Shown here piece after piece: positions 2,897 to 11,862 of a stretch of DNA of 64,000 nt. A program made the translations under genes and the position numbers. The notes under the pieces are model-generated. The model saw only the letters and a program-made list of their open reading frames with translations, searched no databases and was not told the origin of the DNA. The DNA is taken from NCBI GenBank assembly GCA_963777605.1, contig CAVZRV010000013.1, positions 96,001 to 160,000 of the forward strand, read 5' to 3'. Numbering within the stretch: the stretch's first letter is position 1; every line of letters begins with the position of its first letter. This stretch comes from an uncultured Acidobacteriota bacterium (GTDB lineage: Bacteria; Acidobacteriota; UBA6911; RPQK01; JAPXNP01).

Positions 2897-4541
2897 ATGA
2901 GTGACAATGCTTCGAAGTTGAGCCGCCGTGGATTTATTGCTGTCTCCTCGAGCGGGGTCCTGGTTGCGGGCCTGAGCGGGTGTGTAACGGTTGACCAGGA
3001 AACCGGATCCGAATCGGGAGGCGGGCAGTCCGACCGTTTTCAACTTAACGAACTATCGATTGCCGATCTCCACAAGGCGATGGACGAGGGAAGCCTGACC
3101 AGTCACGAGATCACCCGGCTATACCTGGACCGGATTGAGAAGATGGACCGGCGAGGGCCTGCCCTGCGGGCCGTCATCGAGGTGAATCCGGAGGCTCTCG
3201 AGATTGCTCAGAAGCTTGACAAGGAACGTAAGGACGGAAAGAAGCGGGGGCCGCTTCACGGCATTCCGGTCGTCCTCAAGGACAACATCGATACCGCCGA
3301 TCGAATGACGACGACAGCCGGTTCGCTCGCCCTTGAGGGGTCGATCCCGGCCCAGGATTCGTTTGTGGCCGCCCAACTCAGAAAGGCGGGCGCGATTCTG
3401 CTCGCCAAGGCCAATCTCAGCGAATGGGCGAACTTTCGATCCGACTACTCTTCGAGCGGCTGGAGCGGTCGGGGAGGGCAATGTCGCAACCCCTACGCCC
3501 TCGACCGAAATCCATGCGGTTCTAGTTCTGGGTCGGCGGTGGCGGCTTCGGCCAATCTTTGTGCTGGAGCCATCGGCACTGAAACCAACGGCTCGATCGT
3601 GTGTCCCTCCAATGCCAACGGGGTCGTCGGGCTGAAGCCGACCGTCGGCCTGGTGAGCCGGTCCGGCATTATTCCCATTTCGCACACCCAGGATACGGCC
3701 GGCCCGATTACCCGAACCGTGGCGGATGCCGCCACGATTCTGAGTGCCCTGGTCAGGGACCGACCCGCACGATCCGGCGACGGCCGCCAGCGAAGGCCAC
3801 TTCCAGCAGGACTACACTACCGCCCTCAAACGGGGAAGCCTGAAAGGTGCGCGAGTTGGGGTGGTTCGGCAGTACCTGGGATTCCTCCCCGCCGTTGACC
3901 GGCTCATGGAGGATGCGATGCGGGTCATGAAGGAACTCGGTGCCGAGATCGTCGATCCTGCCGACATCCCGACCAACCGCCAGTTCGGCCGACCGAGCTT
4001 CCAGGTTCTCCTGTATGAGTTCAAAGCCGACCTCAACGCCTATCTGGCCGGATTGGGAGAGAAGGCCCCGGTCCACAGCCTGGCGGAGTTGATTCAGTTC
4101 AACAACGAGCACGCAGACGAAGAGATGCCCTTTTTCGGCCAGGAACTCTTGATCCAGGCCGAGGCGAAAGGTGACCTGGCCAGCAAGGAGTATCTGGACG
4201 CCGTGGAGGCGGCCAAGCGCCTGGCGGGACCCGAGGGGATTGACAAGGTCATGGACGACAACAAACTCGACGTGCTGGTGGCGCCGACGGGTGGACCTGC
4301 CTGGAAGACCGATCACATCACAGGGGACCATTTCCTGGGCGGGAGCTCGGGTCCGGCCGCGGTAGCGGGATACCCGAACCTATCAGTCCCTGCCGGCTTC
4401 GTCAGCGGGTTGCCGATCGGGATCTCGTTCTTTGGCCGGGCCTGGAGCGAAGCGAAACTGATCGGGTATGCCTATGACTTTGAGCAGGAGACGAAACTTC
4501 GCCTCCCGCCCCAGTTCATCCCTTCCCTGGAAACCGTGTAG
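2897..4541 (+). CDS. Amidase signature family amidase, Tat/lipoprotein signal; frameshift near 3750-3760 joins ORFs 2897-3898 and 3744-4541
   Basis: SRRGFI Tat motif and LSGC lipobox; GPLHGIPVVLKDNI, GSSSGSAVA, GTETNGSIVCPS and QDTAGPITRTVADAA; second ORF supplies the C-terminal YPNLSVPAG...GLPIGISFFG. Confidence 0.9.
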
Positions 4542-8497: not shown

Positions 8498-9643
8498 CTA
8501 TGGGACAGGACGAGTTTGTGACGGTTTGACTCGGGCGATCAGGAGTGTCTGGTCGTCCCTCTGGGTGACCTCTCCGGTGTATTCGGACACTGCCTGAAGA
8601 ATCATCGACGCGAGGTCTTCTACGGGAAGCTGTCGCTTGGCGACGATCAGGGCCTCCATGCGCTCTTCTCCGAACTGGTTGAGGTCGGGACGCTCCGCTT
8701 CGGTCAGGCCGTCCGTGAAGACGACCAGGAGATCCCCGTTCTGGAGGTCAATGGCCTCTTGCCGGTATGCGGACTCTTCAAACGCTCCCAGCAGCGGCCC
8801 GGTAGGATTGAGCCGCTGAGCCTGGCCGTCCCGGACGAGGAAGGGCGGGCAATGTCCGGCATTGAAGTACTCGAGCCGGCAGGTGGCTGAGTCAAAGACA
8901 CCGTAGAAGAGTGACGCGAACCGATTGCCGTTGTTGCTCTCGCCCATCGACTGGTTGAGGACGTGGGCCAATCGATCGAGTCGGTCCGGGTGGAGCGGTC
9001 CGTTGCTTCGCAGCAATCCCTGCAGGTTGGCCATCAGGAGGGCCGCCGAGATCCCCTTGCCCGAGATATCCCCGACTGCCAGGGAGAGCTTGCCGGGCCA
9101 GAGTTCCAGGTAGTCAAAGTAGTCTCCCCCGATGATTTTGGCGGGCTGACACACCGCGTAGTAATCCATGCCCGGGATCGAGGGTTTGAGCTGGGGAAAG
9201 AGATGGGTTTGGACCTCGGCCGCGATCCGGAGTTGCTCGTTGATGGCGGCATTTTCCTCGCGGAGTCGTTGCAGTTCGAGGTCCTGAAGCACCGTCGTTC
9301 TGAGTGAGTAGGGCTCCCACGGCTTCAGGATGTAGCGGTGCACCTGTCCCTCGTTGATTGCCCCCATCAGGTCCTCGGCTTCGCTGTAGCCGGTGAGGAT
9401 GATGCGGAGCGCCCGCGGCGAAAGAGCCAGCGACTCCCGAAGCAGATCGACACCGCTCATTCCCGGCATCCTCTGGTCGGTGATAATGACCTGGAACGTC
9501 TGCTCTTTCAGCCGCCTGAGCGCTTCTGCGCCTGAGCCGGCCTGGCAGACTTCGAAATCGCCAAGGAAGGTTCGCTTCAGTTTTTGAAGATTGGCCGGTT
9601 CGTCATCGACGACGAGAAGCCGGGGCTTGCTTCCACTCTTCAT
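8498..9643 (-). CDS. Response regulator receiver fused to PP2C/SpoIIE (RsbU-type) phosphatase
   Basis: LLVVDDE, TDQRMPGMSG and KPW receiver motifs; GGDYFD, GDISGKGISAAL, NAGH, TDGLTEA and DDQT phosphatase motifs. Confidence 0.92.
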   Translation of the reverse strand: MKSGSKPRLLVVDDEPANLQKLKRTFLGDFEVCQAGSGAEALRRLKEQTFQVIITDQRMPGMSGVDLLRESLALSPRALRIILTGYSEAEDLMGAINEGQVHRYILKPWEPYSLRTTVLQDLELQRLREENAAINEQLRIAAEVQTHLFPQLKPSIPGMDYYAVCQPAKIIGGDYFDYLELWPGKLSLAVGDISGKGISAALLMANLQGLLRSNGPLHPDRLDRLAHVLNQSMGESNNGNRFASLFYGVFDSATCRLEYFNAGHCPPFLVRDGQAQRLNPTGPLLGAFEESAYRQEAIDLQNGDLLVVFTDGLTEAERPDLNQFGEERMEALIVAKRQLPVEDLASMILQAVSEYTGEVTQRDDQTLLIARVKPSQTRPVP

Positions 9644-9676
9644 CTGGTTCCCATCGCTCTCAAAATGAACCGAGTG

Positions 9677-10453
9677 CTAATCCAGGACTTCGATCACGGC
9701 CTGGTCACGGCCGAAGTTGCGCGTCTCGGGCTGGCTGGCGACAACTTCGAGCAGGTATGAACCCGCAGACGGAAGCGGCAGTTGACCGGTGAACACGCTG
9801 ACTTCACCGGAGAATGCCAGCGGGACTTCGGCAACCTTTTTCTCGCTGGAATCATAGATTTGGGCGACCACGTTGATCTTGTCGGCATCCCAGAGCCCAC
9901 CGGGCTCGATCGGGCACCCTCAGGTCATGGTCATCTTTGCCCGGATTGTCGTTTTCGTCCCGGCAGTTAGCTCCCGTCCTTCCTCCGGAGCGAGGATCTC
10001 GACGATGAACCCGTTCAGTTCCAGGATCAGCCCTTCTCCGAGGACATCTTTGCCGGGGACCAGGAGGATGGTCTTGGAACTCGTCTGGACGGCCTGCGGG
10101 TACTCCAGGGGGCCCTCGGCGATGACCTGCACCGGAGTGGGCCGGTGGAGCATGAGCGTGGTCTCGAAGTAGGCCGTTCCCTCCAGGTCGTAGACCGTCC
10201 CATGACGCTCCCGCGGTTGCACCATGATCTTATCGGTGTTCCCGGTTCCCCCCAACTGAAGACCTTTGGCCAGGATCTCACCCGTTTCGAGATCCTTAAT
10301 GGTGACAGAAGCGCCGCCGACGTGTGTTCCAACCACCTTGGCATCACGGGAAACGACACGGACGCGCAGCTTTGTAGGGACCTGTTCGGCGAGTGCCGGC
10401 ACAAGGAGGAGCAGGGTCGCTCCCAGAGCTACTACGAATCTTCGAAATTTCAT
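9677..10453 (-). CDS. Secreted protein with in-frame UGA at 9920-9922, candidate selenoprotein (MTMT-U-GCP)
   Basis: ORFs 9920-10453 and 9677-9871 are in the same frame, separated only by one TGA; read-through gives 258 aa with a signal peptide and ...KMTMT*GCPIEPGGLWDADK...; a hairpin directly follows the UGA. Confidence 0.75.
9884..9919 (-). promoter_or_regulatory. Putative bacterial SECIS element
   Basis: mRNA after UGA is GGGUGCCCGAUC-GAGCCC-GGU-GGGCUC-UGGGAUGCC: 6-bp upper stem, G-starting apical loop 18 nt after UGA, U-containing 5' bulge and a lower stem. Confidence 0.65.
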
Positions 10454-10532
10454 GCGCCGATTATATCTGCCTCCGCGCTGTCATCCACGCTGAATTGACT
10501 TCCGGCGGCCGGGTTCGACAAACTAACGGGCC

Positions 10533-11862
10533 ATGAAGTCTCTTCTCGTCCGGGCCGAATCGGGCCACCAACTGGATCGCGTGACCCCGCTGAGCCCTTC
10601 CGACCTGTCCGGTGTGGTCCGCCGAAGTGGCCGCCAGGCCATGGTCGAGAGTTCTTCCCGTCGGTGTTTTCCGGACGCGACCTACCGGGAAGCCGGTGCC
10701 CGCATTGTTCCTGTTGGAAGCACGGGTGACGTTGCTCTGGGAATTCGAAACCTGTCCAGTGAGCCCTTCGAACCGGGGAGTGTCCAGTTGCTGTTCCTTG
10801 ACGCTCCATCAGGACGGCTCGACCGGATGAGCGTTCTCAAGGCAGCCCTTGAAGGTGGAGCCACCCTGATCGATCTGGAGGGAATCAAAGATGCGCAGGG
10901 GAAGCGCCTGGTTGGCCTGGGACCCTATTCCGGGCACGCAGGTGCCTTGAACGGGGCGTGGCTGCTGGGACGCAAGTGGGCGGGAAGGGGACTGATCACC
11001 CCATTGGCCCACTGCCGCCAGGCGAGAGATTTCGCAGATCTCTCGGCAGCCTGTACCGAGTTCCAGCATATCGGCCGGATCATTTCGGACAAGGGGTTTC
11101 CGAGGGAACTCTGTCCGGTGACGATCGGGATCCTGGGCCATGGCCCGGCGGCGAACGGGGTAGTGGAGGTGTTGGAGAACTGGCCCGTGGAGTGGGTTGA
11201 ACCCTCGGCACTCGTCACTGCTCTCCAGACGTGCGGGAGCCGATCCCAGAAAGGTCTACTTGACGGTGTTCGAAGAGAAGCACCTGGTCGAGCGGCTGGA
11301 CGGGAAAGGCTTCGAGCCGCGCGACTATATTGTCCATCCATGGCTGTATCGCAGCCGTTTCGACACCTACCTACCCTGGTTGACTGCTGTGATCAACGCC
11401 GTGTCGTGGGATTCCCGTTACCCCCGTTTCGTAACCTGGGCGGGGTTGGGAGCGCTTGCCGCCCGTCCCGGAGCGATGAAACTGGAGGCTCTGATCGACC
11501 TGCCCGGACACGTCGAGGGATCGATCGAGTGTACCGTTCGGGCAACCGACAGCGAACAGCTGGCTTACCTCTGTGACCCCGTTCGTAAGGAGGTCTGTGA
11601 GAGCATCGAAGGGGACGGGGTTCTGGTCATGGCGAACGGTGAACTGGAAGGGGAACTCCCGGTAGACACTTCCACCTTCCTCAGCGGGAGCCTGAAACCG
11701 TATCTCCCGCAGATTCTGCTGGCCGACTTCGACGAAGGGCTGGAGCGGTCAGGACTTTCCGAAGAGGTCAAGAGAAGCGTTGTCGCCTGTCGCGGCGAGT
11801 TGACTCAGCCATACCGCTACCTGGCGGAGCTGGTTGACCGGTCAGAGGCGTCGGCTCCCTGA
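10533..11862 (+). CDS. Lysine-ketoglutarate reductase/saccharopine dehydrogenase-like protein (AlaDh/PNT fold); frameshift near 11210-11250
   Basis: RAES...RVTPLSP, VESSSRRCFPDATYREAGA, TLIDLEGIKDAQGKRLV, INAVSWDSRYPRFVT, GSIECT and ELPVDTSTFLS. Confidence 0.7.

Follow-up and report, generated by a model that had tools for sequence, protein, structure and literature searches.

The window, i.e. the whole 64,000-nt stretch analysed, was found to contain on its minus strand (10453..9677) a reading frame with one internal stop only, the TGA at 9920-9922. The same frame yields two listed ORFs, one of 177 aa (9920..10453) and one of 64 aa that starts with GTG (9677..9871). An earlier note on this DNA had proposed that the two are a single frame split by this TGA, and both the ORF list and the translation agree. 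When TGA is translated as selenocysteine (Sec, U), the read-through product consists of 258 residues, ...RAKMTMT-U-GCPIEPGGLWDADKINV... (..MT-U-GCPIEPGGLWDADK from the residues before Sec178), and matches the sequence quoted in that note. Comparison with homologues (see below) indicates that the frame is very probably a true gene with Sec decoding, belonging to a widespread family that has no name. The features assigned to it are as follows.

9677..10453, minus strand: complete putative selenoprotein gene, 258 codons plus a TAG stop (9677-9679), ATG at 10451-10453; from the sequence, the ORFs and the translation with TGA as U
10388..10453, minus strand: predicted Sec-type signal peptide, residues 1-22; from the translation and the N-termini of homologues
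10013..10381, minus strand: predicted N-terminal beta-sandwich domain, residues ~25-147; from AlphaFold2 (pLDDT 94-98 per block) and conservation among homologues
9680..10012, minus strand: predicted C-terminal Ig-like (E-set/macroglobulin-like) beta-sandwich, residues 148-258, which bears the U-G-C loop
9920..9922, minus strand: in-frame UGA, codon 178, probably read as selenocysteine; from the sequence and the TGA/TGC/TGT column in homologues
9914..9916, minus strand: Cys180 (TGC), the sole Cys of the protein and putative partner of Sec178 in U-G-C; from the translation
9884..9918, minus strand: candidate bacterial SECIS element; pairing 88.3% in 28 TGA sequences versus 67.4% in 62 distinct Cys sequences
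9893..9907, minus strand: upper hairpin of the candidate SECIS element, GAGCCC-GGU-GGGCUC, starting 12 nt past the UGA within the E-P-G-G-L codons

The sole Cys thus lies two residues past the UGA, as the note had stated. Read by eye, the N-terminus (MKFRRFVVALGATLLLLVPALA/EQ) resembles a Sec-type signal peptide, which the note had also claimed, with MKFRR, a hydrophobic core and A-L-A followed by EQ (MKFRR-FVVALGATLLLLVPALA/EQ). Export by the Tat pathway was ruled out because the twin arginine is not kept among homologues.

AlphaFold2, run with an 82-row alignment, gave a model with a pLDDT of 96 and a pTM of 0.88 that, outside the signal peptide and short turns, is entirely beta and comprises two tandem Ig-like beta-sandwiches (residues ~25-147 and 148-258). 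The fold, described as unknown in the earlier note, is therefore predicted to be a common one. The N-terminal domain retains the conserved motifs DAK, VGGA, GGTGDT, AEGPL and PGxDVxGxG. In the second domain, U178-G-C180 follows the strand at residues 167-176 and opens a structured loop of 17 residues, the most conserved loop of that domain. The matches listed by three fold searches were generic Ig-like modules only, with 2qsv, Cox11, SoxY and DsbD absent among the best 50 matches; a sequence search of solved structures gave one chance match (E 0.32), and a search of the ESM Atlas with a natural Cys homologue gave unnamed hypothetical clusters only. A predicted fold of this generic kind says nothing about chemistry.

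Downstream on the same strand, a gene for a response regulator fused to a PP2C/SpoIIE phosphatase (8498-9643) starts 34 nt past the selenoprotein stop. A scan of 9400-10700 detected no promoter or terminator and, since no terminator-like site separates the two genes, they may be co-transcribed; this pairing is not kept in relatives. Elsewhere in the window, on the plus strand, an amidase gene (PF01425, 2897-4541) spans two ORFs that overlap and differ in frame, 2897-3898 corresponding to profile positions 1-216 and 3744-4541 to positions 208-444; this is a frameshift, whether a real one or an indel introduced by assembly. Upstream of the selenoprotein gene and on the opposite strand is a gene with an AlaDh/PNT N-terminal domain (10533-11576, plus strand) and an Arg-rich, nonsense-looking tail, overlapped in another frame by an ORF of 221 aa (11197-11862) that reads like the real C-terminal part, and the region 10533-11862 is probably a second frameshifted gene.

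Codon 178 among the homologues

A word-indexed protein search returned 577 proteins at E <= 0.001, and a HMMER scan of cluster representatives returned 575 matches, 118 of these at E <= 1e-30. Members of the family are named only "hypothetical protein" in the databases. Full-length relatives (~260 aa) can be aligned end to end with the read-through protein and read ...TM(T/M/L)-C-G-C-P-x-E-P-G-G-L-W-D. The earlier note had expected gene callers to split the protein in two, and they do truncate it: the window's product is stored as 177 aa, the Sec forms of relatives are stored as hypothetical proteins of 158-193 aa, and the three closest relatives (77-88% identity) end exactly at ...MTMT. One further protein, P0186, with an unrecognised N-terminal extension of 270 residues, stops at ..RLTMT and is thus presumably a TGA form as well. 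The consensus of 82 diverse homologues, MMCGCPIxPGGLWDA, reproduces the motif MMCGCP..PGGLWDA that the note had named. W188 is invariant in these homologues; 81 of the 82 have both C178 and C180, and the lone exception (S-G-D) has neither. By this pattern of conservation, U178 and C180 would constitute a functional pair, kept or lost together.

When 41 genomes from the family and order of the window's organism were searched in six frames, 18 of them, the window's own genome included, proved to contain the gene, and all 22 matches in them carry exactly one TGA; in each of the 20 loci fetched, this TGA is the codon directly before G-C-P or G-C-T. The codon-178 column was then compiled for 97 distinct loci, namely those of the order plus 80 loci from named GTDB species genomes, minus 3 duplicates. 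It holds TGA in 31, TGC in 57 and TGT in 9 loci and no other codon, with G-C always following. Since all 97 carry TGA, TGC or TGT there, the placement of TGA is far beyond chance. The UGA is therefore aligned with Cys in homologues, as the note had supposed, and 30 further distinct loci bear TGA in the same column. These counts include one locus (L016) from an unpublished genome (G018); without it, TGA is present in 30 of 96 loci and the gene in 17 of 40 genomes, and the conclusions are unchanged. Downstream of the UGA, about 80 in-frame residues are conserved, W188 among them, so that both sides of the codon are conserved.

Named TGA carriers belong mostly to the Acidobacteriota (Blastocatellia, Pyrinomonadaceae, Chloracidobacterium and Terriglobia), with one Thermodesulfobacteriota MAG in addition, and Cys forms are carried by Gemmatimonadota, Acidoferrales-type Terriglobia, Rhodothermales and others. 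Several relatives with the TGA form (G004, G022 and G036) have genomes in a single contig. Of 301 sampled genomes of the phylum, 18 contained the family, in the TGA form in 8 and in the Cys form in 10. On a midpoint-rooted FastTree tree of 92 loci, drawn without branch supports, at least 7 changes between the Sec and Cys states are required. Shared ancestry among the TGA loci inflates the counts, which is offset by the spread of these loci over several clades and by protein identities down to 43%.

The stem-loop 3' of the UGA and the Sec machinery

The candidate SECIS element reaches back to the UGA and consists of a lower stem of 4 bp, a 1x1 internal loop, a middle stem of 4 bp, a 2-nt bulge, and an upper stem of 6 bp closed by the loop GGU; the stem below the upper hairpin is formed by CCCA/UGGG and GGUG/CGCC-type pairs. 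Because the Cys forms encode the same E-P-G-G-L peptide, they provide a built-in control for the hairpin. In the hairpin codon count, for which 96 of the 97 distinct loci fitted the pattern used, a perfect 6-bp upper stem was present in 27 of 31 TGA loci versus 2 of 65 Cys loci. The stem codons of the TGA loci are nearly fixed (CCC for Pro in 29 of 31, GGG for the second Gly in 29 of 31 and CTC for Leu in 28 of 31), and their loop Gly codon varies (GGT 12, GGC 9, GGA 8 and GGG 2). The Cys loci use CCG (24), CCC (24) and CCT (14) for Pro, GGC (32), GGG (15) and GGA (13) for Gly, and mostly CTG (33) for Leu. In two loci (L037 and L038) GAG..CUC is replaced by CAG..CUG (Gln for Glu, Leu as CUG), a compensatory change that preserves the closing pair; with one pair in two sequences, the covariation is thin.

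When a fixed structure of 14 pairs was imposed on the 28 TGA sequences, 88.3% of the cells were paired, compared with at most 49.7% for slid partners, and only 1 of 500 shuffles matched this value. The 62 distinct Cys sequences, at 67.4%, were no better paired than shuffles (393/500). As the folding energy of the 81-nt stretch does not exceed that of dinucleotide shuffles (z = 0.19, with 109 of 200 shuffles folding equally well), the case for the SECIS element comes solely from comparison. An Rfam scan of 9780-9980 detected neither SECIS nor another family, the only match being a chance lncRNA at E 8.6. In canonical bacterial SECIS elements of the E. coli fdhF type, a stem-loop inside the reading frame follows the UGA immediately, and its apical loop, about 20 nt past the codon, contains G residues; the candidate is like them in these features. 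It differs from them in the 2-nt bulge below the upper stem, in the lack of an Rfam family match, and in the apical loop of 3 nt (GGN; 5 nt with the top C-G pair open), which is short for a bacterial SECIS. Taken together, the sequences suggest that a conserved stem-loop directly 3' of the UGA marks the Sec forms, as expected of bacterial selenoprotein genes.

The genome to which the window belongs (6.73 Mb in 53 contigs, 96.7% complete) contains selA, selB, selD and a tRNA-Sec with the anticodon tca, all of them present where the note had suggested looking for selA, selB, selC and selD. Its selD itself carries an in-frame TGA (..VKCAG-U-ASK; G000:C7:931111-932034), which fits the motif UxxK given for SelD in a table of a recent review (PMC13188914). 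The tRNA-Sec gene (C7:942798-942896) is located about 11 kb from selD. No match to FdhA reaching the model cut-off was detected in this genome. Of 41 relatives, 40 yielded SelA, the exception being a 91%-complete genome in 750 contigs, as did 4 of 5 Cys-form carriers examined, so that the use of Cys is not simply due to absence of the machinery. One Cys-form carrier, G331, combines an intact selA with a further SelA-like stretch (C2:1612889-1614067), which is broken into two parts and includes an in-frame TGA. General reassignment of TGA was ruled out: TGA closes 814 of the 1361 frames of at least 500 codons in the window's genome and is the commonest stop, and it is therefore an ordinary stop codon.

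Neither the NCBIfam release of June 2026 (E up to 1) nor Pfam recognises the protein, apart from a single Pfam match at E up to 1, to Big_7 (E 0.17), and a Pfam scan of 82 members gave weak Ig-domain matches only. Table 1 of the review of May 2026 lists 119 prokaryotic selenoprotein families and subfamilies, nearly all with a Pfam, TIGR or NF model, and none of the Pfam, TIGR and NF models in that table matches the protein; its cd and PTHR entries were set apart by their names only, as thioredoxin-like, CopZ, BtuF or Fe-S proteins (PMC13188914). There is no mention of such a family in the passages retrieved by term search from the deep-Sep (PMC12013277), Olavius (PMC1976440) and BSepDB (PMC13326102) papers. 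A literature search found no paper describing the family, its scope being such that supplementary tables and the BSepDB website, which lay outside it, could hold one. The family is apparently uncatalogued as a selenoprotein.

Alternative readings of the gene and of the U-G-C pair

SelB and Sec-tRNA(Sec) would decode UGA-178 as selenocysteine, guided by the stem-loop just past the codon with its 6-bp apical hairpin 12 nt downstream; these proposed decoding steps are supported by comparison. The view that the TGA is instead a true termination codon, an error of sequencing or the lesion of a pseudogene, with a 177-aa product and a downstream frame that is meaningless or a separate small gene, can appeal to the prevalence of TGA as a stop in this genome, to the 177-aa form stored in the databases, and to the two nearby genes that look frameshifted, a sign of some lesions in the assembly or in the genome itself. 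Nevertheless, 30 other distinct loci, with identities down to 43%, share the TGA column and keep the downstream 80 residues in frame, truncation would cost the family its most conserved loop together with half of the second domain, and the hairpin is specific to the TGA forms; judged by these comparative data, such a view is already contradicted, and we consider it extremely improbable. Contigs assembled from four DNA runs cover shares of 0.15 and 0.10 of the stretch in two cases and next to none of it in the other two (those of the first run's study), most of the gene lies outside them, and over codon 178 they contain only a 42-nt piece of a relative, less than 90% alike, at 9887-9928. The search for sequencing runs listed no RNA run. 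A different question is whether the Sec-decoded gene belongs to a new family or is a divergent member of DUF1573 (PF07610), its nearest analogue, which is listed in Table 1 of the review as a selenoprotein family with the motif UGC (PMC13188914). Both have an extracytoplasmic Ig-like beta-sandwich with an invariant C-G-C directly after a beta-strand, in both it is the first Cys that gives way to Sec, and the phylum harbours Sec forms alongside Cys forms, TGA forms of DUF1573 being common there. In addition, three TGA loci of the family read U-G-C-T, the invariant motif of DUF1573 being C-G-C-T, and a 62-column hhalign alignment pairs CGC with CGC and V.A.DP with V.SNDP. This alignment, however, is not significant (probability 1.5%, E 0.035), PF07610 matches none of the 82 family members at E up to 10 and has no six-frame match in the window's genome at E up to 0.01, and 2qsv_A, the one solved structure with a DUF1573 stretch, is absent among the best 50 matches in three fold searches. 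The family also differs in its usual motif, C-G-C-P followed by xEPGGLWD, and in a fixed two-domain architecture with an extra conserved N-terminal domain. Membership in DUF1573 is therefore a quite unlikely reading, and a separate family is preferred.

As for function, the protein would be exported by the Sec pathway and fold into two tandem Ig-like beta-sandwiches, giving a mature product of about 236 residues in which Sec178 and Cys180 (C-G-C in most relatives) may act as one pair on a surface loop. The likeliest reading, at about even odds, is that U178 and C180 are a selenol/thiol with redox activity and alternate with a selenenylsulfide state; Sec178 would attack and Cys180 resolve, the substrate being an extracytoplasmic thiol, disulfide, peroxide or chalcogen. 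No known redox partner is encoded near the gene. The main rival is that the same two residues bind a soft metal or metalloid (Cu(I), Hg, Cd, As, or Se/S) as a bidentate ligand, which would make the selenoprotein a periplasmic binding, chaperone or carrier protein instead of a redox catalyst. We favour the redox pair because Sec comes first in the motif, where the attacking residue of UxxC/UxC redox selenoproteins stands, and because no conserved His or Met accompanies the pair and most selenoproteins, as far as the review's catalogue goes, are redox proteins (PMC13188914). Metal-related neighbours, moreover, are single cases among 98 scanned ORFs, and a fold match to CopC is no better than those to dozens of unrelated Ig domains, so metal binding is possible but on the unlikely side.

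Relatives, gene context and significance

DUF1573 genes themselves are common in the phylum and present in 38 of 61 genomes of a separate sample, a tally that counts the window's own genome although that genome is without a match, and in none of the four genomes of the window's own order within that sample; 22 DUF1573 matches among the matches listed (L108-L111 and others) contain one in-frame TGA. TlpA has a thioredoxin fold. The present family is like the TlpA-type selenoprotein in being exported and in having U-G-C as a presumed selenol/thiol redox pair, and unlike it in its all-beta, Ig-like model; the thioredoxin-fold UxC/UxxC class (TlpA-like, Trx-like Sec.2) was rejected on the basis of this model and the lack of any thioredoxin-type Pfam or NCBIfam match. 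The N-terminal domain of DsbD is an Ig-like periplasmic redox domain with a close Cys pair for electron relay, and Cox11 is an Ig-like Cu(I) chaperone whose CFCF pair binds Cu(I); to our knowledge, neither is a selenoprotein. Both resemble the present family in having an Ig-like periplasmic scaffold with closely spaced Cys residues but differ from it in Cys spacing and surrounding motifs, and no Pfam match to either was obtained here. The tripeptide UGC of the TlpA-type selenoprotein is that given in the review's inventory (PMC13188914).

Among about 60 loci with 98 flanking ORFs, the neighbours differ and there is no family-wide partner. In the TGA subgroup reading ..VRLL-U-GCPIEPGGLWD, a symporter of the SSS family begins a few nt past the stop in 8 loci (e.g. 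L015:2208-3617, L023:2213-3631, L026:2217-3632 and L120-L122, with the symporter of L121 split into two ORFs), and a LarA-like NPN-dependent hydroxyacid isomerase adjoins the symporter in 3 loci of this subgroup. The adjacency of symporter and isomerase may be inherited synteny within one order. Two among the 150 representatives listed are fused to beta-lactamase-fold serine hydrolases (PF00144) in opposite orders: P0128 (680 aa) and P0129 (709 aa), the hydrolase being N-terminal in one and C-terminal in the other, both with C-S-C. In a word search for longer fused relatives none scored, which is weak evidence.

Taken as a whole, the family may be an unrecognised class of extracytoplasmic selenoproteins, a proposal that we regard as doubtful at present: its two-domain Ig-fold scaffold would carry the U-G-C loop as the smallest kind of selenol-thiol active site, separate from the thioredoxin fold, it would count with SelD among the proteins that maintain Sec decoding in this Acidobacteriota lineage, it may work with the symporter and the LarA-like isomerase or with the fused beta-lactamase-fold hydrolases, and it would form with DUF1573 a wider Ig-fold CGC/UGC group. 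Since the Sec forms in databases are cut to 158-193 aa, the entire family is misannotated in the Acidobacteriota, a dominant soil phylum. Its recognition would add one family to the 119-entry inventory and give a second U-G-C site of the non-thioredoxin, Ig-fold kind, and the pattern of a UGA, 12 nt and then GAGCCC-GGN-GGGCUC would be a SECIS pattern for annotation pipelines. The finding also bears on the retention of the costly Sec machinery, with SelA in 40 of 41 relatives and no FdhA selenoprotein in the window's genome. Finally, the repeated interchange of Sec and Cys, together with the presence of SelA in Cys-form carriers, would provide a natural series on the benefit of selenium in an oxidising compartment.
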